In this document: positions 15,202-61,124 of the stretch, one piece after another
How positions within the stretch are numbered: the stretch's first letter is position 1
Layout: each line of letters starts with the position of its first letter
Assembly: GCA_965117035.1 (NCBI GenBank)
Contig: OZ220748.1
Span: 2,927,992-2,991,991, forward strand
Direction: 5' to 3'
DNA: 64,000 bases
DNA from: Dehalococcoidia bacterium
GTDB lineage: Bacteria > Chloroflexota > Dehalococcoidia > Lucifugimonadales > CAZENU01
Program-made: the position numbers and the translations under genes
The notes under the pieces: model-generated
Database searches by the model: none
What the model was told of the DNA's origin: nothing
What the model saw: only the letters and a program-made list of their open reading frames with translations

Positions 15202-15321
15202 CGGGGTCGGGCAGGGGCCGCTGGAGGTCGGCCGGCAGGGGGCGGCGCCATCCTCGAGATCGGGATGGGACCGTGAGCGTCCTGGGGCCGTCTCCCAGTG
15301 CCGGTCCAGGCATGGCGGGTC

Positions 15322-17675: not shown

Positions 17676-17727
17676 AGCGGCTGCCGGTCCGACCGCGGAG
17701 CAGGTTGGGATGGCATGCGTGCTGGTC

Positions 17728-17803: not shown

Positions 17804-18093
17804 ACGGGCAGGGCTCTCGCGTGGTCCGCGCGACTGGCGAGGTGCGCGGCGTTTCCGGCGAAAGCATACGGGGCCGCGTGCTGCGGCCCCGTTTCCTTAA
17901 CGGCTCAACAGTGGAAGGAAACTTGCTCTTCGATTTTTCGACTATCAACACAGCGGGCTTTCTTGGGAAAGCCGCCGCCGCTCGGGGGAGCTCCACCCGA
18001 CGAATCGGGTTCATGCTCGACCCTTCGCTTTGAACGACCTCCACCCACTGATCGACCTCCCCGACGGACCCGAGGGTTCGTCGGAGTACTCCC

Positions 18094-19610
<1,517 letters not shown>

Positions 19611-35979: not shown

Positions 35980-36029
35980 TGTAGTCTCCTTTGGCCAAGA
36001 GGCCCCTGCGTGGCTCAGGCACTGCACTG

Positions 36030-36701: not shown

Positions 36702-36702
36702 G

Positions 36703-37926: not shown

Positions 37927-38332
37927 TTTGAATTCAAGCCTATACCCAGGTACTCTACGCCGCTCCGGCCATCTGACAAGGTTCGTTTGTACCGCGGCAT
38001 GAGGGGTACATATGCACCGCGACAAGTCGGTACAACCGAACCTTACGACCTCGCCAGAGGAACGGCAACATGGGCGCCATGGAGTCACAATTGGCATGAC
38101 CGCTGACCGCTGTCGCCTGGCATTTCCTGTCCCGCCAGGCCGGAGCCAGGGCTCGCGAGTCGATCGCAGCTATGTTGGCGCGGGCAGCCCTGCCGGGGCC
38201 GGGCACATACCTTGACCGAATGCGCGCCGAGATGCAACATACACCACGCGAGCCGCAATCCGTCGCCAGCCTGCCTGTCGGCTGGAGTGTGCGACGGTTC
38301 GAGCGGGAAACTCGAGAAGGCAGGCTGAGCTC

Positions 38333-44300: not shown

Positions 44301-46846
44301 ACTCGGTGTCCGGTCTTGCAGCGGCGGGGAGCGGCGACGAGTCGACCAGCCTGACCGCTCCGTCTACGCCTGGCACGTACTACTACGGCGCGTGCGTGGA
44401 CGCGGTGTCCGATGAGACCGACACGACGAACAACTGCTCCGCTGCGGTGACGGTGACGGTCGGAGCCGCGCCCGCACCGGACCTCGTGGTAGGCATGCCC
44501 ACCGTGAGCGCCAGCAGCACGATCACCGGTGCGACCGTCACGCTGAGGGCGACCGTACGCAATCAGGGCAGTGGTCGTTCGGGTTCCACTACGCTGCGCT
44601 ACTATCGCTCCACCGACGCCACCATTACGAGCTCTGACACGCGGTTGCCGGGCAACTTCCATGTGAACGGTTTGAGTCCATCCGGGAGCAGCGCCCTGTG
44701 GACCAATCTTACTGCCCCGTCCACGGCTGGGACGTACTATTACGGCGCCTGCGTGGACTCGGTGACGGGTGAGAGCGACACGGCGAACAACTGCTCTGTC
44801 GCGGTAACTGTGACGGTCGGCGCTCCCGACCTCGTGGTCGACTCGCCTGCCGTCAGCGACAGCGCCCCGTTGGTCGGAGCCAGGTTCACGCTGAGCGCCA
44901 CGGTGCGCAACAAGGGCAACGTCCCGTCAGGCCCCACCGTATTGCGCTACTACCGTTCGGCCGATGCGACCATCACCGCCGGTGATACGCAGGTCGGCTC
45001 ATACGTCGGTGGTGTGAACCGTCTGAGTCCGGCCGGCGGCAGCGACCACTCGATCGGCCTTACTGCGCCGACCGAACCCGGTACCTACTACTACGGTGCG
45101 TGTGTGGACTCGGTGGCCGGTGAGAGCGACACAACCAACAACTGCTCGGCAGCGGTGACGGTGGCAGCGGCAGGCAGGCCTGACCTGATGATCGATATGC
45201 CCACTGTCAGCAATAGCAGTCCGGCCGCCGGGACATCTTACAGCCTGAGCGCCACTGTGCGTAACCGGGGCAGCGGGTCCTCTATGGCCACCACGCTGCG
45301 CTACTACCGGTCCACCGACTCGACCATCTCTACAAGCGACCGACAGGTGGGCTTTGACCAGGTGAGCGGACTGGGCGCCTCGAGCACCAGTACGCAGTCG
45401 ATCAGCTTGACCGCTCTTGCAGATCCCGGCACCTACTACTACGGGGCCTGCGTGGACTCGGTCGCCGGCGAAAGCGATATCACGAACAACTGCTCGACAG
45501 CCGTGACGATCACCGTCGTCGAGGCGTCCGGCCCGGATCTTGTAGCAGACACTCCTACGACCACCGACAGCCAGCCGACCGTGGGGACCTCCTTCAGGAT
45601 AGTCGTCTCGGTGCGCAACAGGGGCAATGCCACTTCGTCGTCCGCCACGCTGCGCTTCTATCGCTCGACCGACTCGAGCATCACAACCGGCGACGAACGG
45701 ATCGACTCCCGCAGCGTCGAGGGTCTCAGTCCATCGGAGACAACCTACCTGTACAGCGACCCACGAGCACCGTCCACACCCGGGACGTACTACTACGGGG
45801 CGTGCGTGGTTTCGGTGATCGGCGAGTCCGATACCGGAAACAACTGCTCATCCGCCCTGACCATAACGGCGGGCCAACCTGATCTCGTGGTCGACACTCC
45901 CACGGTCAGCGACAGCAGCGTGGCGGCGGGCGAGTCATTCACGCTGGACACCGCCGTTCGCAACCAGGGCAGCAGCGCGTCGGGCTTCACGACCCTGCGC
46001 TACTATCGCTCGGCCGACTCCACGATCACGAGCGCCGACACGGAGGTAGACTATGACCCCGTTGGACCGCTGAGTCCGTCGGGCAACAGTACCGAAAGGG
46101 GCGCATCGCTGGCGCCGTCCACACCCGGGACGTACTACTACGGGGCCTGCGTGGACTCCGTGACCGGCGAAAGCGACACCACGAACAACTGCTCGGCAGC
46201 GGTCGCGGTGACCGTTGGCGCCGGAACCGCTCCAGACCTCGTGGTCGGCACGCCCACCGTCAGCGACAGCACGCCGAGCGCCGGCACGTCCTTCACCCTG
46301 AACGCCACAGTGCGCAATAGCGGCGGCGGTCCGTCGAGCTTCACCACCCTACGGTACTACCGCTCGACAGACTCGACGATCACGAGCTCCGACACGTCGG
46401 TGGGCACCGACTCGGTGAGCGCCCTGAATGCGTCCGGGAGCAGCGCCGAGTCGATCAGCCTTACCGCGCCGGCAGATGCGGGGACGTACTACTACGGGGC
46501 CTGCGTGGACTCCGTGACCGGAGAGTCGAGCACTACGAACAACTGCTCGGCAGCCGTCACGGTGACCGTGAGTCAGCCCGACCTGACTCTCAACATTAGC
46601 GAATGTTTCGTGTTTCAGAACCAACATTTCGCCAGGTTCGAGGTAACGGCGCGCGTATCCGTGTCCTCTCTCGTGGTAAAGACATATGCAGTGGACAGCA
46701 GAGACAACAGCAAGCAGATCATCGCAACGACGAACGTCGGCGACCTCTCGGCAGGCGACTCTTACGAGAAGCTGACTTCGAGAGCCTTCCCGTCGAATAT
46801 GGTCCGCTGGCTCACCACCTGCGCGGTAGGTGCGACTTGGGAGTGA
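38333..46846 (+). CDS. giant exported protein (2837 aa): signal peptide, P/T/A linker, propeptide-like region, subtilisin S8 domain, 2 x FN3, 16 x CARDB-like repeats, unique C-terminal domain
   Basis: The catalytic triad contexts are KVGVIDGG (Asp codon 39185-39187), GSTHGTVVAE (His 39308-39310) and GTSQAAPHVAGMAAL (Ser 40145-40147). The FN3 units read LTATWSAPSSDGGSAITAYDL and IDLSWSAPSNTGGSPITGYRI. The CARDB units read PDLVV.TPTV..SAP.AGA.FTLSATVRNQGSG...TLRYY.S.D..IT..D...G...V..L....S..ESI.L.AP...GTYYYGACV....E.D..NNCS. Confidence 0.9.
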   Translation: MSCGALWISRRLVLRRSAAPVFASALAMLLTLASLACGAEPPTPQRETPSPPAGGSPGSTEPGTGIEVQPRPGPQPTVTALPTATPYPTATPFPTAAPVAGAVATQPPTIAVTTPAPGAAATPTATAAAVGPSGAPTGSAQFSFSRKTELTHPKVGTALNQLIARVEAGEISAEEAASQAPIHREDSIGVAIHLSGNVDDVVRFLEANGASNISARDDYIEAYVPVLLLAETSEQPGVVRVRPIQPPEEPQSGSGIPGNGPGVHGSAAWNQAGFTGKGIKVGVIDGGFGGFADIMGTEVPTTVQARCYLGLGEHSDDLEHCGGSTHGTVVAESVIDIAPEVSLYISDPQSPGDLRDAVDWMISQGVSVINHSRTWLFDGPGDGTSPASVSPLNTVDRAVEAGIVWVNATGNSAQRAWFKRGPFSYTTITVDGQDFRVLNFDEANFRNRFHVWGPLQLRWDDTWSGATRDLDLFLASPDGGEITLVSIDPQSGEDGHIPYERVVAFASYDIMIAHHSGSEPGWIQLLAWQGEGLAFNTPDAGSTINPAESTSSGMLAVGAAHWNNVTSIQSYSSRGPTPDGRTKPDVVAADCGETASASRPFCGTSQAAPHVAGMAALVRHRFPGYTPAQVVAYLKENADQRVNSPDPNDTWGHGFVVLPSISPQLSGSPTITSLTGGARSLTATWSAPSSDGGSAITAYDLRHIRSDASSKADSNWTVVEDVWTGSGALTHVLTGLAVGARYDVEARAVTAAGDGPWSATMSGATASTAPGAPTGLTAAASGQTQIDLSWSAPSNTGGSPITGYRIEVAEDGSSWSDLVGNTRSAATTYSHTGLIGGSTRHYRVSAINSVGTGTVSNVSFATTAAALAPELVVGTPTVSESAPTAGARFTLSATVRNQGSGRSDSTTLRYYRSTDPAITTGDTEVGTDFVSRLDASASGDESISLTAPSTPGTYYYGACVEAVSDETDTTNNCSVAVTVTVGTAPASDLVVETPTVDTSAPTAGARFTLSATVRNQGSGRSDSTTLRYYQSTDSTITTGDTEVGTDSVFGLGASASGDESISLTAPSTAGTYYYGACVDALSDETDTTNNCSVAVTVTVGAAPAPDLVVDTPTVDTSAPTAGARFTLSATVRNQGSGASAFTTLRYYQSTDSTITTGDTEVGTDSVFRLAASASGDESISLTAPATAGTYYYGACVDAVSDETDTTNNCSSAVTVTVGAAPAPDLVVDTPTVDTSAPVAGARFTLSATVRNQGSGRSDSTTLRYYQSTDPAITTADTEVGTDFVSRLDASASGDESINVTAPAAAGTYYYGACVEAVPDELDTTNNCSVAVTVTVGAAPAPDLVVETPTVDTSAPVAGARFTLSATVRNQGSGASAFTTLRYYQSTDSTITTGDTEVGTDSVFRLAASASGDESISVTVPSTAGTYYYGACVEAVSDETDTTNNCSSAVTVTVGAAPAPDLVVDTPTVDTSAPVAGARFTLRATVRNQGSGASGSTTLRYYRSTDSTITTGDTEVGTDSVFRLAASASGDESISLTAPSTAGTYYYGACVEAVSDESDTTNNCSVAVTMTVGAAPAPDLLVDTPTVDTSAPTAGASFTLNATVRNQGSARSGSTTLRYYRSADSTITTGDTAVGTDSVSGLAAAGSGDESISLTAPSTPGTYYYGACVDAVSDETDTTNNCSAGVTVTVGAAPAPDLVVGAPTVDASAPVAGARFTLSATVRNQGSGASDSTTLRYYQSTDSTITTGDTEIGTDTVFRLAASAEGSESISLTAPSTAGTFYYGACVDAVSEETDTTNNCSVAVTVTVGAAPAPDLVVDTPTVDTSAPVAGARFTLRATVRNQGSGASGSTTLRYYRSTDSTITTGDTAVGTDLVSGLAASARGGESISLTAPSTAGTYYYGACVEAVSDELDTTNNCSVAVTMTVGAAPAPDLLVDTPTVDTSAPTAGASFTLNATVRNQGSARSGSTTLRYYRSADSTITTGDTAVGTDSVSGLAAAGSGDESTSLTAPSTPGTYYYGACVDAVSDETDTTNNCSAAVTVTVGAAPAPDLVVGMPTVSASSTITGATVTLRATVRNQGSGRSGSTTLRYYRSTDATITSSDTRLPGNFHVNGLSPSGSSALWTNLTAPSTAGTYYYGACVDSVTGESDTANNCSVAVTVTVGAPDLVVDSPAVSDSAPLVGARFTLSATVRNKGNVPSGPTVLRYYRSADATITAGDTQVGSYVGGVNRLSPAGGSDHSIGLTAPTEPGTYYYGACVDSVAGESDTTNNCSAAVTVAAAGRPDLMIDMPTVSNSSPAAGTSYSLSATVRNRGSGSSMATTLRYYRSTDSTISTSDRQVGFDQVSGLGASSTSTQSISLTALADPGTYYYGACVDSVAGESDITNNCSTAVTITVVEASGPDLVADTPTTTDSQPTVGTSFRIVVSVRNRGNATSSSATLRFYRSTDSSITTGDERIDSRSVEGLSPSETTYLYSDPRAPSTPGTYYYGACVVSVIGESDTGNNCSSALTITAGQPDLVVDTPTVSDSSVAAGESFTLDTAVRNQGSSASGFTTLRYYRSADSTITSADTEVDYDPVGPLSPSGNSTERGASLAPSTPGTYYYGACVDSVTGESDTTNNCSAAVAVTVGAGTAPDLVVGTPTVSDSTPSAGTSFTLNATVRNSGGGPSSFTTLRYYRSTDSTITSSDTSVGTDSVSALNASGSSAESISLTAPADAGTYYYGACVDSVTGESSTTNNCSAAVTVTVSQPDLTLNISECFVFQNQHFARFEVTARVSVSSLVVKTYAVDSRDNSKQIIATTNVGDLSAGDSYEKLTSRAFPSNMVRWLTTCAVGATWE
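40937..46572 (+). repeat. coding tandem array: 16 CARDB-like units of ~354 nt (118 aa)
   Basis: The periodicity is visible in the protein and in the recurring ~69-aa antisense shadow ORFs in the track. Units 1-10 are very similar to each other and units 11-16 are more divergent. Confidence 0.9.
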
Positions 46847-46878: not shown

Positions 46879-47739
46879 ATGACGGAATTCTTCACAGGGA
46901 GGTACGACGTGAGGTATCTCGATGCTCTGCGCCGCGTTGCCGGCCGGCGGCTGTCACCGCTGGCCGGAGCGCTGGCCGTGACGACCCTCGTCGCGTGCGG
47001 CATCTTCCCGGTTGACGAGACGCCCGTTCCAACGCCCACCGCCGTTACCCAACAGCCCGCCCCGGCCGCAACGGCCCCGGCTGCTTCGACCGCCCAGTCG
47101 CCGACGGTGGCGGCAACCACCCCGGTCGCCCCGTCCGGGTCGGCGGCCACGCCCGCGCCCGCAGGGTCAGGTCTCTATCGCGCGGTCTGGACGAACGACG
47201 TCGACGACATGGAGAAGCTCATCGCCGGCGGAGCCGATGCGAACTCCAGGGGGCCGGATGGCGAGCCCCTTCTGTACGAGGCCATATGGCGAAACCATCG
47301 TGAAGTCGCAAGGATCCTGATCGACGCTGGCGCGGACGTCAACGCCAGCGACTCCGACGGCGATCCACTGCTGCTCGAAGCCATATGGAGGGATCATCCC
47401 GGCATTGCGCAGATCCTGATCGACGCTGGCGCGGACGTGGACGCCAGGGACTCCGACGGCAATCCGCTCCTGCTCGAAGCCATATGGAGAAATCATGCCG
47501 GCATCGTGCAGATCCTGGTCGACGCTGGCGTGGACGTGGACGCGAAGGACGCAGAGGGCGATCCTCTCCTGTACGAAGCTGTCTGGAGAAACCATGTCGA
47601 GGTCGCGAGGATTCTGGTAGGCTCGGGCGCGGACGTTAACGCCAGGAGGGCGAATGGCGAGTCTCTCCTCTACGAGGCGCGTTGGAGAGGACATGCGGCC
47701 ATCGAGCAGATCCTGGTCGATGCGGGCGCCCAGGAATAG
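46879..47739 (+). CDS. lipoprotein with P/T/A-rich linker and five ankyrin repeats
   Basis: The start is taken at ATG 46879 (MTEFFTG...). The lipobox is AVTTLVAC. There are five very regular 33-aa units: G.PLL.EAIWRNH..[IV]A.ILIDAGADV[ND]A.D. Confidence 0.8.
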   Translation: MTEFFTGRYDVRYLDALRRVAGRRLSPLAGALAVTTLVACGIFPVDETPVPTPTAVTQQPAPAATAPAASTAQSPTVAATTPVAPSGSAATPAPAGSGLYRAVWTNDVDDMEKLIAGGADANSRGPDGEPLLYEAIWRNHREVARILIDAGADVNASDSDGDPLLLEAIWRDHPGIAQILIDAGADVDARDSDGNPLLLEAIWRNHAGIVQILVDAGVDVDAKDAEGDPLLYEAVWRNHVEVARILVGSGADVNARRANGESLLYEARWRGHAAIEQILVDAGAQE

Positions 47740-47803
47740 GGACGTATTCATCGGAAGCGCCTGACTTGGGACAACCGCACGCTGGGCCATCATGAGGTGA
47801 CAT

Positions 47804-48325
47804 TTGGGCAGATACTGCACGAGCTGCGGGTCGCAAAACGACGACGCCGCGAAATTCTGCAGGGACTGTGGCAAGGCCATGTCCGGGTCGACGCCGGGTG
47901 CTGGGAGGTCGGAGTCGGCGTCTCCCAGTGGCACGGGCGATGGGATGACAATCGGATACTATCTCGAAGGGCTTCGGGAGTACTTCAACTTCGAGGGGCG
48001 TGCCAGTCGAGCGGAGTTCTGGTGGTTCACCCTGGTCCTTTACGCCATCCAAATTGGGATCGTTGTCCTCGACACGGTACTGGGCATGTTCTCTCCGGGA
48101 CTTCAGCTACTATCTACCGCCGTACTCTGGATACACGGATTGGCCACGTTTATCCCGCATTTGGCAGTAGGCGTCCGACGGCTGCACGACACGGGGAGGA
48201 GTGGTTGGTGGGTGCTGATCATCCTGGTACCGTTCATCGGTTGGATTCCGCTATTGATCTTCTTGGTTCTACCGACCGATCCGCGCCCGAACAGCTACGG
48301 CCGCGGGCCAGGCACTAGGTGGTGA
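47804..48325 (+). CDS. zinc-ribbon + DUF805 (YhaH/YhaI-like) membrane protein
   Basis: A TTG start with GAGGTGA upstream. The N-terminus is GRYCTSCGSQNDDAAKFCRDCGKAM. The DUF805-like core is FEGRASRAEFWWFTLVLY...VGVRRLHDTGRSGWWVLIILVPFIGWI. Confidence 0.75.
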   Translation: MGRYCTSCGSQNDDAAKFCRDCGKAMSGSTPGAGRSESASPSGTGDGMTIGYYLEGLREYFNFEGRASRAEFWWFTLVLYAIQIGIVVLDTVLGMFSPGLQLLSTAVLWIHGLATFIPHLAVGVRRLHDTGRSGWWVLIILVPFIGWIPLLIFLVLPTDPRPNSYGRGPGTRW

Positions 48326-48383
48326 CGCAGGGTCACAAAGCCAAGTCCCCGCCGGTGATCCCGAGTCTCGGAGGCTGAGTACG

Positions 48384-50072
48384 ATGGTTTGCAAGTACTG
48401 CGGAGTCGAAAACGACGACGGAGCCGCGTTCTGCAGGAACTGTGGACGTGCAATGAGCGGCTCGCCGCCGGCCGCAGCGGGACGCGACCCTGCGCAGGCC
48501 GATGACACCGTGGATGAAATTCAAGCTCCCACGAAGGCGAGGACCTGGATTTGGGTTGCCATTGGGTCCGCCGCCGCCGTGGTCCTGCTCTTCGTCGGTC
48601 TCATGGCATTCCTGTTTGGAGACAGCCTCGGCATAGGAGATCCGAGCCCGACCAGCACGCCCGCTCCCGTGATGATGTCCGTCAACCTCCTCACGCCAAC
48701 GGCCACGGCCGAGGCTCCGGGCGCTGGCGACCGTCCGGATGAGGTGAGCATTCAGCCCACGCCGCAGCCGACGTATACGCCCAACCCGACGTACACACCC
48801 AATCCGACCTACACGCCCGCTCCGACGCCGACACCCAACCCGACGCCCAATCCCACGGCCACGCCCGATCCGACAGCCACAGCAAGCCCGACAGCGACGC
48901 CCAATCCTACGGCTACGCCCGATCCGACAGCTACACCCAACCCGACGGCGACGCCCAATCCTACCGCCACGGCGAGTGCGACGGCCACGGCGAGCGCGAC
49001 GGCCACGGCGAGTGCGACAGCCACGGCCAGTGCGACGGCCACGGCCAGCGCGACTGCCACGGCGAGTGCGACAGCCACGGCCACGGCAACACCCGGGGCG
49101 ACTTACGCCTGCTCCGAGGGGGCGAACCCTACGCCCCTCCATCGCGCGGTAGATCGGACCAACCTCGAGGTCGTGAGGATCCTGGCCGACAAGTGCCCCG
49201 GAGACCTGAACGTCGTCAGCGACGAATACTTCTACGATCAGACGCCCCTCAGCCTTGCTATCGGGAAAGGGCGCAAGGAGATTGTCAGGGCACTGGTCAC
49301 GGCAGGGGCCGACCCGGACGTCAAGATCAACCCTGCCTTCCGAGTGGGGACTCACCTCACCTACGCAGTTGGTCTAGGAGGCGCGGAGATCGTCCAGATC
49401 TTACTGGACGCAGGCGCGGAACCCAACGTGGTTGACACTGAACAGGCCTACAACCAAACGCCGCTCAGCCTCGCGATCGGTGCCGGCAGAATAGACCTGC
49501 TGCGAAAGCTCATCGCGGCCGGAGCGGACCCTGATGTCAAGATCAATCCTGTTTTCCGAGTGGGGACTCACCTCACCTACGCGGTTGGTCTAGGAGACGC
49601 GGAGATAGTCCAGATCTTACTGGACGCAGGCGCGGAACCCAACGTGGTCGACACTGAACAGTTCTACGACCAAACGCCGCTCAGCCTCGCGATCGGTGCC
49701 GGCAGAATAGACCTGCTGCGAAAGCTCATCGCGGCCGGAGCGGACCCTGATGTCAAGATCAACCCTGCCTCCCGAGTAGGATCTCACCTCACCTACGCGG
49801 TTGGGCTTGAGGATGCGGACGTGGACGTCGTCCAGATCCTCCTGGACGCAGGCGCAGACCCCAACGTGGTCGACACTGAGCAGTTCTATGAAGAATCTCC
49901 GCTCAGCATTGCGGTCAAGGCCCGGGACATTGAGATGGTACGTCTTCTCGTAACCGCTGGCGCGGACCCGAACCAGAAACTCGACCAGTTCAACACAGTC
50001 AGTCCACTCGATATCGCAATCGAGGAAGGATACACAGACATCGTGAAGGTCCTCACGGGCGTCTCGAACTAG
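48384..50072 (+). CDS. zinc-ribbon / single-TM anchored protein with low-complexity linker and ~7 ankyrin repeats
   Basis: The N-terminus is MVCKYCGVENDDGAAFCRNCGRAM and the TM segment is TWIWVAIGSAAAVVLLFVGLMAFLF. The linker is PNPTYT/PTATPN/ATASAT. A 77-aa double-ANK unit is repeated about 3.5 times (GADPDVKINP..RVGTHLTYAVGLG.AEIVQILLDAGAEPNVVD). Confidence 0.8.
   Translation: MVCKYCGVENDDGAAFCRNCGRAMSGSPPAAAGRDPAQADDTVDEIQAPTKARTWIWVAIGSAAAVVLLFVGLMAFLFGDSLGIGDPSPTSTPAPVMMSVNLLTPTATAEAPGAGDRPDEVSIQPTPQPTYTPNPTYTPNPTYTPAPTPTPNPTPNPTATPDPTATASPTATPNPTATPDPTATPNPTATPNPTATASATATASATATASATATASATATASATATASATATATATPGATYACSEGANPTPLHRAVDRTNLEVVRILADKCPGDLNVVSDEYFYDQTPLSLAIGKGRKEIVRALVTAGADPDVKINPAFRVGTHLTYAVGLGGAEIVQILLDAGAEPNVVDTEQAYNQTPLSLAIGAGRIDLLRKLIAAGADPDVKINPVFRVGTHLTYAVGLGDAEIVQILLDAGAEPNVVDTEQFYDQTPLSLAIGAGRIDLLRKLIAAGADPDVKINPASRVGSHLTYAVGLEDADVDVVQILLDAGADPNVVDTEQFYEESPLSIAVKARDIEMVRLLVTAGADPNQKLDQFNTVSPLDIAIEEGYTDIVKVLTGVSN
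48966..49091 (+). repeat. in-frame 18-nt coding minisatellite (GCC ACG GCG AGT GCG ACG)n, about 7 copies
   Basis: It encodes ATASAT six times plus a variant copy. It is preceded (48763-48965) by degenerate 15-18-nt P/T-rich repeats. Confidence 0.9.
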
Positions 50073-50228
50073 GCGTGAGCATGAACGTGGTCAAATTCGG
50101 CAAATGGCGGCGCTCTCGCAGGAGCGATCGGGCGGGGAGTACCGGGATGGTGCGCGGGTTTTCGACGGCTCTCATTGTTCGGGGGAACAGGCGTTTCGGG
50201 TCAGTGACCGGAAAGGAAAGATAGTCAA

Positions 50229-51251
50229 ATGGTACAAACGAGCGGTTACTGCGTGAGCTGCGGCAGCGAAATTGAAGAAGACGCGAGGTTTTGCACGGGA
50301 TGCGGTGCCCCAGTCCAACAGGGCGATCCTCCTGAGGCTGCAGCTGAGGGCAGGAGCAACTATCAGCGCTTTCTCACTGTAGACGCGTCCGGTGGTTTCT
50401 TCGCGACCGTGGGGCCCGCGCTGATCTGGTATGGCGCGGCGGGCGTCCTGATATGGTCCATCATCGGGCTGCTCTCGCTTCGCTTCGACATCGCCGCGGT
50501 GATAGACCTCCCCAACCTGCTGTTCAGCATGCTGATCATGGTTGGGATAGTGCTGAGCGCGACCGCCAGCTACTACCTCCTCCGCAGCTACCGCGAGCGG
50601 GCCGGACGGCTCTGGTACGCGCTCTCGTACCTCCCGGCCGTGTGGGGCGTCTTCATGAGCGTTGGGCTGCTCATCATGATATTGCAGGTGTGGACCGATT
50701 TCGCCTGGGGCCCGGATGACCTCCGAAGGGCCATGTTCTCGCTCATTGGCGTCGGCCTGTGTGGGATATATGGCGGATACCTGGCGCTCATAGTGACCGG
50801 GCTGGAGCGGATATACCAGGTCGCGCGCTGGGTGGTGTATGTCCTGTTGGTCATCATCGCGCTCGAGATCCTGGAGGCGACGTGGCTGACCAGTCGGGAC
50901 CTGTCTGGACAAGAGCTGAGGGACGATTTCCTGGCTGCCGGCGGGACCGCAATTCTAGTTGCAATCGTGTACTCGATCATAGCTGTCATCCTGGCTCAAG
51001 CCGGAGACAGCAAGGCGCGCCTCGCCGTTCTCGTGACGTACGTGGTCCTCGGGCTGTTCGGATTCACGATCGCTGTCTGGGCCCTATGGGACAATCTCCC
51101 TGCGGGTGCTATACGGTTTGTCCACGGGGGAACGGTCTTCGTGGCCATCGCTACTATCGGACTATTGGTCGTACGGCATTTCCACAAGCACAGGGGCAAC
51201 CCCAACGTACCGGCAGTCAGCGGAGAATCCTCAGCCCAAAGCGGGACCTGA
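50229..51251 (+). CDS. zinc-ribbon protein with a ~8-helix polytopic membrane domain
   Basis: The N-terminus is MVQTSGYCVSCGSEIEEDARFCTGCGAPV, followed by eight hydrophobic segments. I recognise no family for the membrane domain. Confidence 0.65.
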   Translation: MVQTSGYCVSCGSEIEEDARFCTGCGAPVQQGDPPEAAAEGRSNYQRFLTVDASGGFFATVGPALIWYGAAGVLIWSIIGLLSLRFDIAAVIDLPNLLFSMLIMVGIVLSATASYYLLRSYRERAGRLWYALSYLPAVWGVFMSVGLLIMILQVWTDFAWGPDDLRRAMFSLIGVGLCGIYGGYLALIVTGLERIYQVARWVVYVLLVIIALEILEATWLTSRDLSGQELRDDFLAAGGTAILVAIVYSIIAVILAQAGDSKARLAVLVTYVVLGLFGFTIAVWALWDNLPAGAIRFVHGGTVFVAIATIGLLVVRHFHKHRGNPNVPAVSGESSAQSGT

Positions 51252-51332
51252 AATCGCTCAGGGAAAGAGGGGACATTGAGCCGCTTCGGACCGATTGGCG
51301 GCAGGCAGTCATGAATCGTGGAGGCTGAGCCC

Positions 51333-53240
51333 ATGTATTGCAAGAGCTGCGGGTCGGAAAACGACGATGGCGCCAGGTTCTGTAGGGACTGCGGACGTGC
51401 AATCACCGGCTCGTCGCCGCGCGTAGAGACAGGTGCCTCCGCGGATGGCGGCGACACGCCGGACGCAGTCGAAGCTCCCGCGAAGGCGAACACCTGGATC
51501 TGGGTTGCCGGTATAGCGGGGCTTGTCGCGGTCCTGCTGTTCGCAGGTCTCATCGCCCTGGTCCTGGCAGCAACATCCGGTTCTTCACGCCAAACGGATC
51601 GTGAGGCGTTGGAAGTCCTCTTCCAAGCCACCAGCGGGCACAGCTGGCTCGAAAGCAAAAACTGGTTGACCGACGCCCCACTGGGTGAATGGACGGGCGT
51701 CACGACAGACGAGGACGGGCGCGTGACTGGACTGGACCTTGGCGCAAACGAACTATCGGGCCGTATACCTCCCGAGCTGGGCAACCTTGACCGACTGCGC
51801 ACGCTCGACCTGGCCGCCGAGCGGACCGTGACGACTCTCAGAGGGGGAGTGAGGATCACGTTTGGGGGTGACTCCCCGAGTCTCTCGTCCCAGCTCAAAC
51901 AGGCAGGCAGGCAACTGGCGGAATCGGCCGAGACCAGCATCCGCAGGAACTACCTGAGCGGATGTATTCCGACCAGTCTCAGGGAACAGTTGGATATGAG
52001 CGCATCGGATCTCGGCGGCCTGCCGTTTTGCGACGGGTGGAGTGCGCCAACTGGGGACATCACGCGCGCTGGCCCGGATACGACACCTTCAAGGGAGGGA
52101 ACAGAGGGCCGGGACGGACCACCCAAGCCAGCCCAGGTTGCCGATAACAGGCCACCCGCTCCTGAGAACGTGCGGTATGTCTGGGATGAATCGACGATCA
52201 TCGTGACCTGGGACGCGTCGGAAGGCGCCGAATACTACACCATCTATCACGACGACTTCTTTGACAATTCCTGCACCGTCGTGGGTGACGGCACCCCGGC
52301 ATTCTGCGAAGAGCTGGCGTCGAACGTCCGTGAGAACTCATACGTCCATGCCGATCCGGACGGTGGCGAAAACCACTACTGGGTAACCGCGTGCGTTCGC
52401 GACGGATGCTCGGAGATCGACTCCCATAGCCCGGCCGAGTACGTCGACACCAGGCCGGCGAGTCCGACAAACGTGCGGGTGCAGTTTGTGCAGGACGGCA
52501 CGCAGATTCAGGTCTCCTGGGACCCGGTGCCGGACGCGGGGCACTACAAGATCTATTACGACGATTTCTTTGGTGACAACTGTCGAGTGGACAGGTTCGG
52601 CGACGCGAGCTTCTGCGACCTCTTGGCTTCAGACATACGACAGACGAGCTACCTTCACGCACGCCCAGCCAGGGACGAGAACTACTACTGGGTCGTCGCC
52701 TGCAACAGCGGCGGCTGCTCGGATGTCGACCGCGAGAACCCTGCAGTGCCCGCGGATTCTTCACGGTCCGCAACTGCGCCAGCGGTCAGCCCGTCTCCCG
52801 AGCCATCGGAAACGGCGACTGAGCCTGACGCGTCCCGGAGGTCGTTCGAAGCGTCAACGCCGCCGGGCTACACTCGAGTCATGCTGACTGACCAGGGGAG
52901 CGTATGGGGAACTCCGGAGAGGTTTACGACCGATTCAAGGCTCGGCGCCGTCGCGTATATGCTGCTCGGAAGTGTGAAAGGCTGCAGCTTTGCCAGGGAG
53001 GAGTTGAGACGTTCAAGCATAGTCCATATCAAGGTGGAGCGACTGGGGCGCCTTGCGACGTACGAATCTGGAGACGCCTGCGGCAAGACCAGCAGGAAAT
53101 GGGACACTGGCTGGGAAGGTATGAAGATGGCCCGTCTACGCATCTTTGACGAGAGCAGTCCCGCGAACGTCAGGGAGTACGTCTACGATCAAGCCGCTGG
53201 AGAGTATGTCGAATCGCCCGCATCCGGCGACTTCAACTAG
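51333..53240 (+). CDS. zinc-ribbon / single-TM anchored protein with plant-type LRR N-cap + LRRs, two Cys-containing FN3-like domains and a unique C-terminal domain
   Basis: The N-terminus is MYCKSCGSENDDGARFCRDCGRAI and the TM segment is TWIWVAGIAGLVAVLLFAGLIALVL. The LRR part is DREALEVLFQATSGHSWLESKNWLTDAPLGEWTGVTTDEDGRVTGLDLGANELSGRIPPELGNL. The FN3-like units end in YWV[TV]AC...GCS. Confidence 0.8.
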   Translation: MYCKSCGSENDDGARFCRDCGRAITGSSPRVETGASADGGDTPDAVEAPAKANTWIWVAGIAGLVAVLLFAGLIALVLAATSGSSRQTDREALEVLFQATSGHSWLESKNWLTDAPLGEWTGVTTDEDGRVTGLDLGANELSGRIPPELGNLDRLRTLDLAAERTVTTLRGGVRITFGGDSPSLSSQLKQAGRQLAESAETSIRRNYLSGCIPTSLREQLDMSASDLGGLPFCDGWSAPTGDITRAGPDTTPSREGTEGRDGPPKPAQVADNRPPAPENVRYVWDESTIIVTWDASEGAEYYTIYHDDFFDNSCTVVGDGTPAFCEELASNVRENSYVHADPDGGENHYWVTACVRDGCSEIDSHSPAEYVDTRPASPTNVRVQFVQDGTQIQVSWDPVPDAGHYKIYYDDFFGDNCRVDRFGDASFCDLLASDIRQTSYLHARPARDENYYWVVACNSGGCSDVDRENPAVPADSSRSATAPAVSPSPEPSETATEPDASRRSFEASTPPGYTRVMLTDQGSVWGTPERFTTDSRLGAVAYMLLGSVKGCSFAREELRRSSIVHIKVERLGRLATYESGDACGKTSRKWDTGWEGMKMARLRIFDESSPANVREYVYDQAAGEYVESPASGDFN

Positions 53241-53265: not shown

Positions 53266-54081
53266 TTACGGACCTGACGGGCCGCTCTGTCCAACGGACT
53301 CTATGGCGTGGGACGGCGCCCACCCCGCGAGCTCCCCGCCGGGCAGGGCGACCCTGGTCCAGCCGTGACGGGAGTCGGCAACGCGCACCTGCGCGCCGCT
53401 GTGAAGCGTGAACTCCTCGGTATACTGCGGCCCTGGCCCGCTCACGACGTCGACGGCCTCGGCGGTCACAACGCCGGTGCTGTCGTATGGATTGGCGTAA
53501 ATCATGCTGACAAGAAGCACCAGCGACACAGCGGTTGCCGCCGTCGCGGCGACGGCCGCCATGCGCAGCGCCCGTCTCAGCGGGAAGGCCCGCCAGACCA
53601 GGAGGGCGCCAGTGCCCGTTCCGGCGAACACCCATAGCAGCAGGGCCAGGACGCCGAGCTCGCCGGTCGTGGCCCAGCGGTACCCGAAGTAGGACATGCT
53701 CTCGACCAGGGAGTCTCTCTCGACCTCGATGCGGTCCACGGTCATGCCGAGCGCCAGCTCCAGGTTCTTCGCTACGGCCGAGTCTCTGGGAGTGAGCTCG
53801 CGGGCGCGCATATAGTTGAGGACCGCCCGCCCGAGGTCGCCACTCTCGAGGTACGCGTTGCCCAGGTTGAAGTAGAGGGCCGGGTCGATGTACCCCCGGT
53901 CGATCGCAGCCTCGTACTGCTGGGCGGCCTCGGCGTACTCGCCGCGTTCGTAGCTAGCGTTCGCCCTGGTCATCAGGTCGATGGCCGACGGGCCCTGTGC
54001 CTGCGCTTCGCCCGCGACGAGGACCGCAAGGGCGCCGAGGGCGGCCAGCAGTGCAAAACGGCGCATCGCCAGGCGGATCAT
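53266..54081 (-). CDS. batE: BatE-like protein (signal peptide, TPR repeats, TM segments, C-terminal SH3b-like domain)
   Basis: TPR-like helices (YERGEYAEAAQQYEAAI, FNLGNAYLESGDLGRAVLNYMRA). The C-terminus is TLHSGAQVRVADSRHGWTRVALPGGELAGW. It is the last gene of the Bat-type operon. Confidence 0.65.
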   Translation of the reverse strand: MIRLAMRRFALLAALGALAVLVAGEAQAQGPSAIDLMTRANASYERGEYAEAAQQYEAAIDRGYIDPALYFNLGNAYLESGDLGRAVLNYMRARELTPRDSAVAKNLELALGMTVDRIEVERDSLVESMSYFGYRWATTGELGVLALLLWVFAGTGTGALLVWRAFPLRRALRMAAVAATAATAVSLVLLVSMIYANPYDSTGVVTAEAVDVVSGPGPQYTEEFTLHSGAQVRVADSRHGWTRVALPGGELAGWAPSHAIESVGQSGPSGP

Positions 54082-55469
54082 TGCCGGATGGCCTCATCGA
54101 GCTCGTCCAGGAGCTGCGCGGCGCGTTGCACACGGTCTTCCGCGTCGCCGGCGGCCGCCGCTTCCGGCCGGTATCTCGCCGCTTCGCCCGACGCCAGCGT
54201 GTCCTCCACTCGCTCGAGCGCCGCGGGAGAGACGCCGGCTTCACGGAGCCGGTCTACGAGGGCCTCTCGGGTCAGTCCGCCCAGGGGGATAGCGAGCCGG
54301 TCGGAAAGGTAGGACATCATCGCGTCGGCGGCCGCGACCGCGCTTTCGTCGCCCGCGGCCGCGGCGCGCGAGATTGCCGCTTGAGCGTTCGCCAACGCAT
54401 TGCGCCGCCGGGAGTCGACAGCCGCGGCCTCAATGGCATCCCGCCTGCGCCGCCAGGCGGACGCTCCGACGATCGCCAGCAACGGCAGGGCCCACGCGGC
54501 CCAATAGCCGTACCCGTCCGTCACGTCTCCGCCCGCCGTCCGAAGATGCGACGGCACGGGCTTGATGGACCCCGCGCCCGGAACGGCCCCTTCCTCCGTC
54601 CCGCCGGCGGTGGACCGGGGATCTGGGGATGCGCCATCGACCGCGGCAACAGAAACGGCGATTGGCGACGTTATCGCCCCGACATACTCCTCGAGGTCGG
54701 GGTCGTAGTGGGCGTATGAGATCTCCGGCACCATCAGCTCACCCGCCATTTCGGGCACCAGGACGCTGACGTACGTCCTGCTCCCGACGAGCCTTCCATC
54801 GACGACCTCGCTGGTGACGGAGGGAGGCGATTCGATCACGCGCCAGCCTCGAAACTCCGGCCATGACGGGTCCGGGAGCGCGTCGATGTTCCCGGCGCCC
54901 TGGAGCGTCACCGTCAACTCGACCGAATCGCCCATCCGTACCGTCGCGCCATCGACGGCGGCCGAGACCTCGAACCTGCCGACCGCGCCCGCGAACCCCG
55001 CAGGGGCGCCCGCGGGCGTCGGGCTCACCTCTATCGTGACGGGGACGCTCTCCACGACCGTGGGCGCCTCGGATGAGCCGCCGGACACGGTCAGTACCGC
55101 GGGAGCGATATCGATCGTTCCGACCACGCTTGGGAACAGGATCGTTCGCAGCTCGATGACCCGGTACGACTCGGAATCCACAGTCTCGGTGTATTCGTCC
55201 TGCTCGGTCTCACCGACGTTCCAGAACCCGGCGAAACCGGGAGGCTCGTAGTGGACGGAGTGGGGAAAGCCCGGGCGCTGGTATATCCTGGATATATAGG
55301 TGATCTGCTGACCGATGTAGGGCCTGTCGTTGTCCACGGACGCGGTGACGAACAGGGCTTGGTCGGCCGGCGACTGCTGGGCGCCAACGGGCAGAGCGAC
55401 CAGGAGAGTCGCCGACGATACAACGACCGCGCTGACCAGGGCTCGCGATATGGTTCCGATGCGCGTCAC
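54078..55469 (-). CDS. batD: BatD-like protein
   Basis: A 463-aa protein with a signal peptide, two Ig-like beta regions, one TM segment near residue 330 and a helical C-terminus. Its position and architecture match BatD. Confidence 0.6.
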   Translation of the reverse strand: MTRIGTISRALVSAVVVSSATLLVALPVGAQQSPADQALFVTASVDNDRPYIGQQITYISRIYQRPGFPHSVHYEPPGFAGFWNVGETEQDEYTETVDSESYRVIELRTILFPSVVGTIDIAPAVLTVSGGSSEAPTVVESVPVTIEVSPTPAGAPAGFAGAVGRFEVSAAVDGATVRMGDSVELTVTLQGAGNIDALPDPSWPEFRGWRVIESPPSVTSEVVDGRLVGSRTYVSVLVPEMAGELMVPEISYAHYDPDLEEYVGAITSPIAVSVAAVDGASPDPRSTAGGTEEGAVPGAGSIKPVPSHLRTAGGDVTDGYGYWAAWALPLLAIVGASAWRRRRDAIEAAAVDSRRRNALANAQAAISRAAAAGDESAVAAADAMMSYLSDRLAIPLGGLTREALVDRLREAGVSPAALERVEDTLASGEAARYRPEAAAAGDAEDRVQRAAQLLDELDEAIRQ

Positions 55470-55478
55470 GGCCAGGGG

Positions 55479-56129
55479 CTACCAGTCGAACTCGGTCTCG
55501 GGTTTCGGGGAAACCAGGGTTTGTTGTCTTCGCTCCTGGAGCGTCTGCGCGTCCTCTCCAACCGCTTCGAGCGCCTGCCTCGCCTGGTCATCGGTCAACG
55601 GCTCGGTCTGGGGCGCCTGCGGAGGCGGCTCGGACTGAGGCGGCGGCTGCGCCTGGGACGACTGGGCCTGGGGAGAAGCCTGCTCGTCGTCCGCGTCCTG
55701 TCGCGACATCCGTTTCAGGGCCAGCTCCAGGTTGTGCTTGGCGTCCCGGTCGTCGGGGTTCATGCGCAGCACCTCCCTGTACGCCTCGGCGGCCTGCGCG
55801 TACTGCTGCGTGCGAAAGGCCGCGTTGCCCCGGTTGAAGAACCCGCGCGAGCGCAGATCGCCCGTCGCATCCCTGAGCGCCTCGTCGTACTCCTTCAGCG
55901 ACTCCTCGAAGTCGTCCATCCGGTACAGCACGTTCCCCACGTTGTAGCGCGGCGCGCCCTCCTCCGGGGCACGGTCTCGAGCCGCTTCGTACGCATCGAG
56001 GGCCGCGCCGTAGTCCGCGTTGGCGTAGGGCCCGTGGCCCGAGTTATTGACCTCACCGGGGCTGGGGCCGCAGGCCGACAGCAGGAGCGCGGCGGCAGGC
56101 AGGGCGATCAGAGTCCTAAGGCCGAACAC
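55479..56129 (-). CDS. batC: BatC-like TPR lipoprotein with acidic/Q-P-rich tail
   Basis: The lipobox is LLLSAC. The TPR helices are YNVGNVLYRMDDFEESLKEYDEAL and FNRGNAAFRTQQYAQAAEAYREVL. Confidence 0.65.
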   Translation of the reverse strand: MFGLRTLIALPAAALLLSACGPSPGEVNNSGHGPYANADYGAALDAYEAARDRAPEEGAPRYNVGNVLYRMDDFEESLKEYDEALRDATGDLRSRGFFNRGNAAFRTQQYAQAAEAYREVLRMNPDDRDAKHNLELALKRMSRQDADDEQASPQAQSSQAQPPPQSEPPPQAPQTEPLTDDQARQALEAVGEDAQTLQERRQQTLVSPKPETEFDW

Positions 56130-57168
56130 GTTCCGCTCCTTCTGTCGCCGTCGGCAATCGGCTTCGCGACGTGAGGAAGAGCCGGTCCGTCAGGACCTGC
56201 GCCAGGAAGAGCGAAAGGGCGCCCGCGAGCAGGAACAGCTGAAACCGCTCGACTCTCCTCTCGTCGAGCTCGCTCTGGAGACTCTCGTCCTGGAAGGCGC
56301 TCAGCTCGTCCAGCAGACCGGCCGTCGCGTTGGGGTCGGCGGCCCTGAAATACCGGCCTCCGCCCGCCTCCGCGATGCGCACGAGCGCGCCCTCGTCGAG
56401 CCTGGAGACGATGGGGCGTCCCTCGCCATCCTGTCGGTGTCCGATCACGGCGCCCTGTTCATCGTAAACGGCAACGGGCCATCCTTCGGCCGAGCCGAAC
56501 CCCACCGTATAGACAACCGCTCCGGCCTCCGCGGCCTGCCCGGCGGCCGCGACCGGGTCACCCTCGTGGTTCTCCCCGTCCGTCATGATGACTATGACTT
56601 TCTGGCTCACCCGATGATCGTTGAAGCTGCCCATCGCCATCTCGATCGCCTCGCCGATCACGGTCCCCTGCCGGGTGATGGCCTTCGGGCTGGCGCTGTT
56701 CAGGTAGGTCCGGGCGGTGTCGTAGTCGGCGGTCAACGGGAACTGGACGAAGCTGGCGCCGGAGAACAGGACTATGCCGACCGAGTCGCCCCTCAGCCTG
56801 GACATGAGGTCCGAAATCTCCAGCTTGGCCCGGTCGAGGCGCGTCGGCTTCACGTCCTCGGACAGCATGCTGCGGGACACGTCCAGGGCCACCATCACCT
56901 GCACGCCGCGGCGCTCTACTATCTCGACGTCGCTGCCCCACTGCGGCCGCGCCAGCGCGACGATCAGCAGCGCTATGCCACAGGACCAAAGAACGAACCG
57001 CGCCACGCGCATTCTCCGGCTTGCGGACCCGCTGAGCCGTTCGACGAGCGCCGGATCGCCCATGCGCGACACGGCGGCGGTCCTGCGCGCCGAGACCCAC
57101 CGCGCGAATACCGCCAGCAGTGGGACCAACGCCAGGGCGAGCAGGAGCTGTGGAGCTGCGAAGGTCAT
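56116..57168 (-). CDS. batB: BatB-like vWA-domain membrane protein
   Basis: It has N-terminal TM helices and a vWA MIDAS context (VMVALDVSRSM), with VIVIMTDGENH. A C-terminal TM segment is present. Confidence 0.75.
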   Translation of the reverse strand: MTFAAPQLLLALALVPLLAVFARWVSARRTAAVSRMGDPALVERLSGSASRRMRVARFVLWSCGIALLIVALARPQWGSDVEIVERRGVQVMVALDVSRSMLSEDVKPTRLDRAKLEISDLMSRLRGDSVGIVLFSGASFVQFPLTADYDTARTYLNSASPKAITRQGTVIGEAIEMAMGSFNDHRVSQKVIVIMTDGENHEGDPVAAAGQAAEAGAVVYTVGFGSAEGWPVAVYDEQGAVIGHRQDGEGRPIVSRLDEGALVRIAEAGGGRYFRAADPNATAGLLDELSAFQDESLQSELDERRVERFQLFLLAGALSLFLAQVLTDRLFLTSRSRLPTATEGAERVRP

Positions 57169-57175
57169 GGCGAGC

Positions 57176-58180
57176 TCAGGGCAGTCTCCGGAATACGGTG
57201 TTCGAGAGGGCCCGTTCCAGCAGCAGGATCGCCAGCGCCGGGACCAGGAACCAGGTCAGGACCTCTCTATACCGGATGAAGTTCTGGATCTCGACGTCGG
57301 ACTGTTCCAACGCGTTGATCTCGGCGTAGATGCCCCGGAGTTCCTCCGTATTGGTGGCGCGATAGTATCGTCCGTTGGCAATGGACGCGATCTGCCGGAG
57401 CGTCTCCTCGTCGAGCGGATTCTCCTGGGTCGCGCTCCCTGTGCCCGATGGGTCGGTCCGCGAGTCGCTCGTCTCGCCGCCGCTTCCCATTCCGATCGTG
57501 TACAGCCTGATGCCGACCGCCTCCGCCGCCGTGGCAACCGTTATGGGATCGAGCTCCCCCGCGTTGTTCACCCCGTCTGTGATCAGAGTGACGATCCTGC
57601 TCTCGGCGCTGGAGTCCTTCAGCATGTTCGCCGCGGTCGCCATTCCGCTCCCAATCGCCGTCCCGTCTTCGATCCTCATTTCCTCGGCAAGGTGGATGTC
57701 CCTGAGCAGGCGTTCCAGCGCGACGTGGTCCAGCGTGGGGGGACTCTGGATGAACGCCTCGCGGGAGAAGACCACGAGGCCGATGCGGTCGTAGTCCCGG
57801 TCCTCTATGAAGTCCGCGATGATCTCTTTCGCGGCGCCCAGCCTGTGCGGCGCGAAGTCCGTCTCGCCCATGCTCCCCGATACGTCCAGGGCTATGGCGA
57901 TATCGACGCCCTCGCCCCGGATGACCTCTCGCGCATCCGCCAGTTGCGGCCGCGCGGCGGCGACGACAACCAGCGCCAGCGCGAGAATACGCAGCACCGA
58001 GACGAGCGGGGTCAGCCGGAGGCGAAGCGACCTCCTGCTCACGGGAACCAGGCCGGTGTCCGCGTACCTCAGGGTTACCGGCCCCATTCGCCGCCTCCAC
58101 AGGTACGGCAGGACGGCCGGCGCGACGGCCGCCGGCAGCAGGAAGAGCACCCAGGATGACTGGAAGGTCAGGTCGCTCAC
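57176..58180 (-). CDS. batA: BatA-like vWA-domain membrane protein
   Basis: The MIDAS context is IAIALDVSGSM, with IVTLITDGVNN and IRLYTIGMG. TM helices are present at both ends. Confidence 0.75.
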   Translation of the reverse strand: MSDLTFQSSWVLFLLPAAVAPAVLPYLWRRRMGPVTLRYADTGLVPVSRRSLRLRLTPLVSVLRILALALVVVAAARPQLADAREVIRGEGVDIAIALDVSGSMGETDFAPHRLGAAKEIIADFIEDRDYDRIGLVVFSREAFIQSPPTLDHVALERLLRDIHLAEEMRIEDGTAIGSGMATAANMLKDSSAESRIVTLITDGVNNAGELDPITVATAAEAVGIRLYTIGMGSGGETSDSRTDPSGTGSATQENPLDEETLRQIASIANGRYYRATNTEELRGIYAEINALEQSDVEIQNFIRYREVLTWFLVPALAILLLERALSNTVFRRLP

Positions 58181-59232: not shown

Positions 59233-59239
59233 GCTCCTC

Positions 59240-60127: not shown

Positions 60128-60128
60128 G

Positions 60129-61124
<996 letters not shown>

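Follow-up and report, generated by a model that had tools for sequence, protein, structure and literature searches.

Four consecutive genes within a 64,000-nucleotide stretch of a Dehalococcoidia genome (assembly GCA_965117035.1, contig OZ220748.1; referred to below as the window) encode membrane proteins that all begin with a small four-cysteine zinc ribbon. They are termed A, B, C and D, their open reading frames (ORFs) starting at window positions 47804, 48384, 50229 and 51333, respectively. Comparison of the N-terminal regions revealed that B and D are built on the same cassette, or handle, which couples the ribbon to a single transmembrane (TM) helix, appears to be derived from the CD225 (dispanin) family and is found in related bacteria in front of strongly differing cargo domains. 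We propose that this handle acts as an uncleaved signal-anchor in N-in/C-out orientation, with the ribbon in the cytoplasm, and that recombination within low-complexity linkers has brought about exchanges of its cargo. Our confidence in the architecture and the cargo swapping is high, and the explanation as a whole, which includes a role for the ribbon, is considered rather probable.

Architecture of the four genes

All four genes lie on the plus strand and are separated by gaps of 58–156 nt. Gene A (47804–48325; 173 aa) has a TTG start and consists of a ribbon (residues 4–25, nt 47813–47878), a 35-residue Ser/Gly/Pro linker and a DUF805 domain with three TM helices (residues 60–166). The TTG start is credible because it is preceded by GAGGTGA at 47794–47800 and because the start position is conserved in two related loci, as TTG in the closest relative (L007) and as ATG in L009. 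Gene B (48384–50072; 562 aa) is composed of a ribbon (residues 2–23), a linker, a TKARTWIWVA motif and a TM helix (residues ca. 56–80) as constituents of the handle, followed by a Pro/Thr spacer and ca. eight ankyrin (ANK) repeats (residues ca. 250–557), as delineated by Pfam and hydropathy. In gene C (50229–51251; 340 aa) the ribbon (residues 7–29) precedes a body with eight TM helices. Gene D (51333–53240; 635 aa) starts with a handle made up of the ribbon (residues 2–23) and a CD225-like loop and TM helix (residues 38–80) and continues with a region related to leucine-rich repeats (LRR; residues ca. 90–215), two Cys-rich modules resembling fibronectin type III (FN3) domains (residues ca. 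275–375 and 376–480), a junction with the sequence SRRSFEAS at residue 501 and a C-terminal domain without assigned family (residues ca. 505–635).

The ribbon sequences quoted in an earlier reading of the window (the sequence-only reading) were found as described, and all four exceed the Pfam cutoff of 25 bits for PF13240 (Zn_Ribbon_1), with scores of 28.2 (A), 29.4 (B), 33.5 (C) and 29.8 bits (D). The profiles DZR, Zn_ribbon_3 and DUF7577 score slightly under their own cutoffs on the same ribbons. Hydrophobic helices behind every ribbon were likewise seen in a Kyte-Doolittle scan, with three in A, one in B (residues 60–78), eight in C and one in D (residues 61–79). In a six-frame scan of the window the pattern CxxC-x8-14-CxxC was detected in A–D and in three minus-strand ORFs of 30, 60 and 136 aa; the latter are taken to be chance matches, and the ribbons of A–D are the only credible ones in the window. 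According to a hand calculation, four random genes among ca. 55 would be consecutive with p ~1.5e-4. A scan for promoters and terminators between 46500 and 53500 found none.

The cassette of B and D and the heads of A and C

The sequence-only reading had attributed one and the same ribbon/anchor module to all four genes. This holds for the presence of a four-cysteine ribbon but overstates the relationship beyond it; the sequences rather argue for one cassette (B and D), one ribbon with a related tail (A) and one separate ribbon (C). The cassette of B and D, ca. 85 residues long at the protein level, comprises a Shine-Dalgarno sequence, the ribbon, a Pro/Ala/Gly linker, the motif GDTxDAxEAPTKA(R/N)TW(I/M)WVA and one TM helix. 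Over 85 residues, which include AP(T/A)KA(R/N)TWIWVA and the helix, the two proteins are 51% identical, and their likeness thus extends well beyond the CxxC residues. At the nucleotide level, 58 of 75 positions (77%) agree in an ungapped alignment of ribbon codons 1–25 and, when gaps are allowed, 67 of 80 (84%) over the initial 81 nt. The value falls to 171 of 255 (67%) across all 85 codons, and 204 of 296 positions agree from −40 to +260. The Shine-Dalgarno block GGAGGCTGAG of gene B (48370–48379) is identical to that of gene D (GGAGGCTGAG, 51320–51329), as had been noticed before with the coordinate for B one base off (48369). Moreover, the same codon is used at 29 of the 40 identical residues of B and D compared with 18.5 expected from local codon usage (p = 7e-4), which points to shared DNA ancestry or gene conversion beyond what protein-level constraint alone would produce. 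In our proposal, the cassette was duplicated at the DNA level.

Gene A has the ribbon and ca. 20 linker residues in common with B and D (53–60% identity) and retrieves B/D-type handles in BLASTP with E-values of 1e-11 to 1e-14; in a sequence comparison the TM motif and anchor of B and D were absent from A. The ribbon of gene C (CxSCGSEIEED..FC) is 34–41% identical to the other three and represents a separate subtype. For both A and C the count of identical codons with respect to the other heads is at expectation, and their likeness is seen at the protein level only. This finding, together with the shortness of the ribbons, might speak for chance or convergence on a CxxC...CxxC pattern without common origin. 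Such a scenario is extremely improbable in view of four ribbons above a curated cutoff, the BLASTP values of A and the identity, Shine-Dalgarno block and codon excess of B and D. The scenario is refuted for A, B and D, and for C we claim membership in a common fold family only.

Relationship to the CD225 family

In three other Dehalococcoidia loci, tandem arrays of two to four small genes (6007–6850 in both L013 and L014; 4696–6870 in L015) were found, each gene coding for a protein in which the ribbon precedes a CD225/dispanin domain (PF04505, E = 3e-25). Ahead of their second membrane helix, these ZnR-CD225 proteins carry ...GD.xGA.QAS.NAKTWMWVA..., a motif which they share with the B/D handle. 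When the handle tails devoid of their ribbons were compared with the ZnR-CD225 tails, hhalign gave a probability of 97.7% (E = 2.5e-12), and the tails aligned to the C-terminal half of CD225; as a control, the B/D handle profile gave 0.3% against the 8-TM family of gene C. The half of the handle behind the ribbon that aligns, namely the conserved loop and the second hydrophobic helix, corresponds to 51444–51572 in D and to ca. 48495–48623 in B, both on the plus strand. In contrast, the first segment of the ZnR-CD225 proteins, PNYLVQAILVTxFCCLPFG, is missing from the handle, for which reason B and D stay under the Pfam CD225 threshold, and large, presumably extracellular cargo has been added in B and D. 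On the basis of these alignments the handle appears to be a derivative of the CD225 family but not a member of it, and the cassette probably descended from small ZnR-CD225 proteins via loss of the first hydrophobic segment.

A plausible intermediate is encoded at +4696 of L015 by a 269-aa protein, in which the ribbon is followed by a full CD225 domain, a Pro/Thr linker and a C-terminal domain. The head of gene A fits into the same relationship: its ribbon with a 14-residue tail is 81% identical to the ZnR-CD225 counterpart of L013 and 84% identical to its own orthologue in L009. In our proposal, gene A carries the ribbon and tail of this subtype in front of a polytopic DUF805 domain. The N-in/C-out topology expected for CD225 proteins is the one proposed here for the handle; it has been modelled for IFITM3, the prototype of the family, and agrees with our assignment (PMC13194588).

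Cargo domains and their exchange

For finding further handles, a profile of the B and D handles was run against 1.84 billion representatives without word index (E ≤ 1e-3). It matched 3218 clusters at 50% identity, of which only ca. ten cover ribbon, linker and TM helix; a word-indexed search with the 89-aa handle of D returned two matches only, both frameshifted D orthologues. The search for additional ribbon-anchor paralogues in relatives, as suggested by the sequence-only reading, therefore yielded ca. ten full handles, and these are joined to ANK, cadherin, LRR-like or FN3-like cargo. In P0062 and P0066 the handle is followed by other Cys-rich FN3-like modules and the C-terminal domain of D, in P0064 by FN3-like modules only, in P0063 by an LRR-like region, in P0067 and P0103 by ANK repeats and in P0068 by Big_9, cadherin and ANK domains. 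Gene D shares modules with P0062–P0066.

A direct indication of cargo exchange is provided by a natural chimera of 606 aa encoded in the related loci L003 and L004 (8001–9821), which carries the head of D and the tail of B. According to BLASTP, its residues 1–287 are 72% identical to residues 1–282 of D, comprising handle and LRR-like region, and its residues 240–606 are 78% identical to residues 194–562 of B, comprising spacer and ANK repeats. The changeover from D-like to B-like sequence lies within the Pro/Thr/Ala spacer. Provided that the chimera is not an assembly artefact, these alignments make cargo exchange by recombination in low-complexity linkers a well supported process. The notion of a reusable handle hence stands for the B/D type, on account of the varied cargo and the chimera, but not for all four genes as carriers of one module.

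The divergence of the cargo in the window, as claimed from sequence, was verified to different degrees. DUF805 (PF05656) of gene A scores 114.5 bits (cutoff 25.7) over profile positions 1–110 of 111, the ANK repeats of gene B score 148.5 (Ank) and 143.7 bits (Ank_2), and the eight helices of C were seen as described above. The LRR assignment of gene D falls just under the cutoff, with one LRR_1 unit at 20.3 bits (cutoff 20.6) and LRR_4 at 17.4 bits (cutoff 27). The fn3 profile (PF00041) stays under its threshold of 25 bits with two matches of 17.7 and 15.7 bits, which are restricted to the N-terminal third of the profile, and the modules are termed FN3-like and not fn3. Beyond the TM helix protein D contains 12 cysteines in pair-like positions (suggested pairs 211/233, 314/325, 354/359, 417/428, 457/462 and 551/583), as expected for an oxidising, extracytoplasmic site.

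Gene B contains two repeats detected by TRF on the plus strand: an 18-nt tandem repeat of ca. 17 copies (48768–49083), which codes for the Pro/Thr/Ala spacer, and a 216-nt repeat of 2.7 copies with 89% identity (49300–49883), which corresponds to double ANK units. Both may be read as signs of recent expansion. A further potential joint is the SRRSFEAS junction of D (residues 501–508; 52833–52856, plus strand; consensus (E/P)(S/P)D(M/A/T)SRRSFEAS(T/K/E)P), which recurs in P0062, P0066, P0067, P0068 and a handle protein of L010 (+6007). The domains behind it, either the C-terminal domain of D or ANK repeats, are unrelated, and the junction might mark a point of recombination or serve for processing or binding.

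Proposed membrane topology

The ribbon is located at the extreme N-terminus of A–D, with no signal ahead of it, and is predicted to be cytoplasmic, as it needs reduced cysteines and zinc. The distribution of Lys and Arg residues favours an N-in orientation in A (8 in the N-terminal segment and 3 in loop 2 versus 0 and 3 outside), in B (2 before and 0 after the TM helix) and in C (11 in the cytoplasmic versus 6 in the outer loops). The handle would display ANK, LRR-like and disulfide-type FN3-like domains on the cell surface behind Pro/Thr spacers.

Alternatively, ribbon and TM helix might form a long, ribbon-bearing signal peptide which is cut by signal peptidase after the helix, so that the cargo is released as secreted effectors and the ribbon has no function other than to retain the N-terminus on the cytoplasmic side or to set the timing of export. 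In D-type handles a motif of small residues that fits the −3/−1 rule indeed follows the helix directly (AAS in P0063, P0064, P0067 and P0068; AAT in D), a folded zinc domain, which presumably is not translocatable, would fix the N-in orientation also here, and other ANK proteins of the window appear to be exported via cleavable lipoprotein signals. However, the hydrophobic stretch of ca. 25 residues is longer than typical signal-peptide cores, B-type handles lack AAS (FGDSLGIG), and the segment has its homologue in the second helix of CD225 proteins, which stays in the membrane as a stable element. Furthermore, A and C are polytopic and their ribbons not part of a cleaved signal, and a ribbon copy number between one and four (see below) is left unexplained. 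We therefore regard cleavage and release, and equally a mere holding or timing function of the ribbon, as unlikely, albeit as the most serious competitor of the anchor.

The two ANK proteins of the window without ribbon have N-termini ending in lipobox-like sequences, LVAC in the protein encoded directly before gene A (46879–47739, plus strand; Pfam Ank) and LAGC in the second one (34777–36033, minus strand); one of the two also carries fn3. The ANK region of the former is 50–56% identical to the ANK cargo of the handle-bearing proteins P0067 and P0068. Taken together, lipobox and ANK likeness suggest that two interchangeable anchors, lipid and handle, put related cargo outside. For the entire B/D handle, membrane anchoring for surface display is thus the function with the best support.

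Possible function of the ribbon

The proteins matched by the handle profile indicate the typical setting of such ribbons. Among the best 149 matches, 147 contain ribbons and 106 start with one; 84 have TM helices, and in 74 of these 84 all ribbons precede the first one. Multi-ribbon proteins dominate the matches. Varying copy numbers were also found for the gene C family, which comprises 58 homologues in Chloroflexota. PF13240 is marked in the precomputed annotation of 43 of the 58, most of the others being truncated, and the ribbon appears to be present in nearly all full-length members. Its number is one in the window, two in L002 (6431/6563), L007 (9854/9956) and L008 (156/288) and four in L009 (4499–4895), the tandem unit of ca. 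44 aa consisting of the ribbon and QQGDSPEA..EGRGSYQR; P0003, a member of 512 aa, probably has more copies. Scans of the C body against Pfam and NCBIfam revealed no relative, and a C-family profile matched the PDB via its ribbon only. In our proposal, the ribbon of C is of the other subtype and would have been joined to a conserved 8-TM domain at an early time, with the copy number changing between one and four among close relatives.

The closest structurally characterized ribbon is the zinc finger of ArnA from Sulfolobus acidocaldarius (PDB 5a8i and 8s05; E = 4.8e-5), which shares the CxxCGxENDDxAxFCxxCG pattern. ArnA, an archaeal soluble protein with an FHA domain and without membrane anchor, differs in its overall context; its zinc finger has a protein, ArnB, as binding partner, and binding to DNA was not observed (PMC12852372). 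ZitP of Caulobacter and GltJ of Myxococcus are membrane proteins with a cytoplasmic N-terminal ribbon and a flexible linker, which resembles the layout predicted for A–D, and these ribbons bind PopZ in the case of ZitP, and MglB as well as the protein's own linker in the case of GltJ (PMC11135422). They belong, however, to another ribbon subfamily with different Cys spacing, and Pfam detected neither their MJ0042-type ribbon nor the accompanying DUF3426 or GYF domain in A–D. Protein binding by the ribbons of ArnA, ZitP and GltJ in combination with the varying copy number favours a protein-contact role, and the change in copy number among close relatives together with the multi-ribbon matches fits a low-affinity contact module with tuned valency. 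In analogy, the ribbon might be a small cytoplasmic protein-protein contact site which tethers or clusters proteins on a partner or on each other, and to which tandem copies would add avidity. We favour this role over the other readings of the ribbon, albeit tentatively, as it is on the whole less likely to be right than wrong.

Many zinc ribbons bind nucleic acids, and A–D might be considered as membrane-tethered regulators, with a ribbon that contacts nucleic acid and an outside domain that acts as ligand sensor. Such a function was proposed by Coggill and Bateman for the same Pfam ribbons N-terminal to TM helices (PMC3355149). It is improbable for A–D: a single 23-aa ribbon with an acidic ENDD or EIEED loop would be a poor binder, the closest solved relative is the protein-binding one of ArnA, and the same ribbon is found on DUF805, CD225 and 8-TM bodies, all of which are without a sensor domain. 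ZAS anti-sigma factors (zf-HC2) have a cytoplasmic zinc-containing N-terminus, one TM helix and a variable outside domain, the layout predicted for the handle proteins; this reading was rejected as neither a PF13490 nor an HxxxCxxC match was obtained and no sigma gene is adjacent, the neighbours being ANK, S8/CARDB, two-component system and Bat genes.

Genomic context

The adjacency of the four genes, which exceeds chance by far, their common strand and their short gaps might be taken to indicate that they constitute a single dedicated operon or multi-component system, whose four products are brought together by the common ribbon. The full cluster A-B-C-D indeed recurs in L007 and L009, where it is flanked by a giant S8/CARDB peptidase on one side and by a convergent Bat operon on the other. 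In the other loci, however, subsets or C alone were found: B, C and D in L001 and L002, with no ribbon-bearing A within the stretch fetched; one D::B chimera and C, followed by a transposase, in L003 and L004; C together with a handle gene resembling D in L005, where the surroundings are otherwise unrelated; and C alone in an unrelated setting in L006. In L007 a two-component system is inserted into the cluster region, a common accessory gene is absent, and tandem duplication of paralogues would explain the adjacency of B and D. A dedicated four-gene system is hence clearly unlikely, and the locus is a variable island of surface-protein genes.

Several neighbours deserve mention. Directly upstream of the cluster, at a position kept in L001, L007 and L009, a 2837-aa protein with an S8 subtilase domain, fn3-type segments and ca. 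20 near-identical repeats of ca. 120 aa is encoded (38333–46846, plus strand); its orthologues in L001 and L007 are annotated as Peptidase_S8, CARDB and fn3. Upstream of this gene a LuxR-type response regulator and a histidine kinase are located (36030–38097, minus strand), and the insertion of a similar pair in L007 (5138–7115, plus strand) separates gene A from the ANK lipoprotein gene. Convergent with D, a complete Bat/MoxR-type operon extends over 53266–60202 (minus strand) with genes for TPR, BatD, TPR, two vWA/BatA and DUF58 proteins; the order in the L007/L009 setting is MoxR-DUF58-vWA-TPR-BatD. The D/Bat junction is kept in L001, L002 and L007 and absent in L003–L006. A functional link of the ribbons to this Bat/vWA operon, prompted by the ArnA-ArnB interaction, was rejected on account of its convergent orientation and its absence from the neighbourhood of C in L003–L006. 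In L003 and L004, C is directly followed by genes for a DDE transposase, which overlaps the 3′ end of C, for PIN, for Prok_Ub and for a serine recombinase (10926–18187). This suggests the insertion of a mobile element at the place that is occupied by D and the Bat operon in the window. The breadth of ribbon fusions in Chloroflexota is illustrated by two proteins of L010, a 672-aa fusion to DUF2339 (−3006) and a fusion to a multi-TM body with a weak DUF4234-like segment (−4037).

The related loci originate from metagenome-assembled genomes (MAGs) of Dehalococcoidia/Chloroflexota including Langseth_MAG_00123, and Geodia sponges in which SAR202 Chloroflexi dominate were described in the Langseth Ridge study (PMC8826442). 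Proteins of the ANK, LRR, FN3, cadherin and CARDB types are abundant in the window as well as in its relatives. The same cargo repertoire of ANK, LRR, FN3 and cadherin domains has been reported for the eukaryotic-like proteins of sponge symbionts, including sponge Chloroflexi (PMC6306507). From the Langseth relatives and this repertoire a sponge origin can reasonably be inferred.

Discussion

Several points weigh against the interpretation developed here. The Pfam CD225 match of D stays under threshold (17 bits compared with 27.1, E = 0.0066, profile positions 36–68 of 68), the B handle gives no Pfam CD225 match, and a TM helix can inflate profile-profile scores; the control, as given above, was clean. 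The helices were called by a Kyte-Doolittle scan, and the Lys/Arg count of D is uninformative with one residue before and two after the TM helix. AlphaFold2 models are of low confidence for both C (pLDDT 57, 37-sequence alignment) and D (pLDDT 36, five sequences). For the proposed role of the ribbon we draw on an analogy to members of other ribbon subfamilies; no gene was consistently linked to the ribbon genes in the neighbourhoods, and no ribbon partner was identified. Finally, the source bacterium is probably, but not certainly, sponge-associated, as concluded from MAG names and the content of eukaryotic-like proteins.

The sequence-only reading knew of no described system of this organisation, and such novelty of the architecture as a whole is largely refuted. 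YARHG proteins with the order of PF13240, PF12773 or PF13248 ribbon(s), TM helix and outside domain have been on record since 2012 (PMC3355149), N-terminal ribbons on PspC and other membrane proteins were noted as well (PMC11237479), and ribbon-TM architectures have also been treated elsewhere (PMC11135422). The YARHG and other zinc ribbon membrane proteins share ribbon families, domain order and often tandem ribbons with A–D; they differ in that the cargo of A–D consists of eukaryotic-like repeats, DUF805 and the 8-TM body and in that B and D add the CD225-derived motif. A Pfam scan of 68 proteins with N-terminal ribbon and TM helix among the best handle-profile matches gave 65 families, the best 25 of which were listed. 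The fusion of ribbon and DUF805 is confined to ca. 18 clusters, nearly all from close relatives, and most DUF805 proteins are without ribbon. A literature search combining zinc ribbon, sponge and ankyrin yielded no paper linking them. The modest novelty resides in the cassette on eukaryotic-like cargo, its likely CD225 ancestry and the natural chimera, which were not found in the searchable literature.

As a more far-reaching scenario, the handle of ribbon and half CD225 could serve sponge-associated Dehalococcoidia specifically for displaying eukaryotic-like proteins on their surface. Its conserved ribbon, linker and juxtamembrane motif would then either be bound by a specific partner in the cytoplasm or mediate self-association as in IFITM proteins, and the displayed array of ANK, LRR, cadherin and FN3 domains would thereby be clustered or regulated. 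We offer this as a speculation which is more likely wrong than right by a wide measure. If true, the handle would amount to a novel N-terminal signal for sorting or clustering and bear on the way in which symbionts present host-mimicking proteins.

The basic picture remains unchanged insofar as the architecture is catalogued and annotation would read "zinc ribbon domain-containing protein". Nevertheless, a great many bacterial and archaeal membrane proteins start with a zinc ribbon, for hardly any of which a role has been assigned, and the locus offers a compact natural experiment, in which one ribbon subtype is placed on DUF805, CD225, ANK and FN3/LRR-like bodies, copy numbers vary between one and four and a chimera is available. 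For the biology of these organisms the data suggest that at least some eukaryotic-like repeat proteins of Dehalococcoidia are anchored to the cell surface, by ribbon and TM helix or by a lipobox, and not injected, and that their repertoire may diversify via cargo swaps at Pro/Thr linkers.

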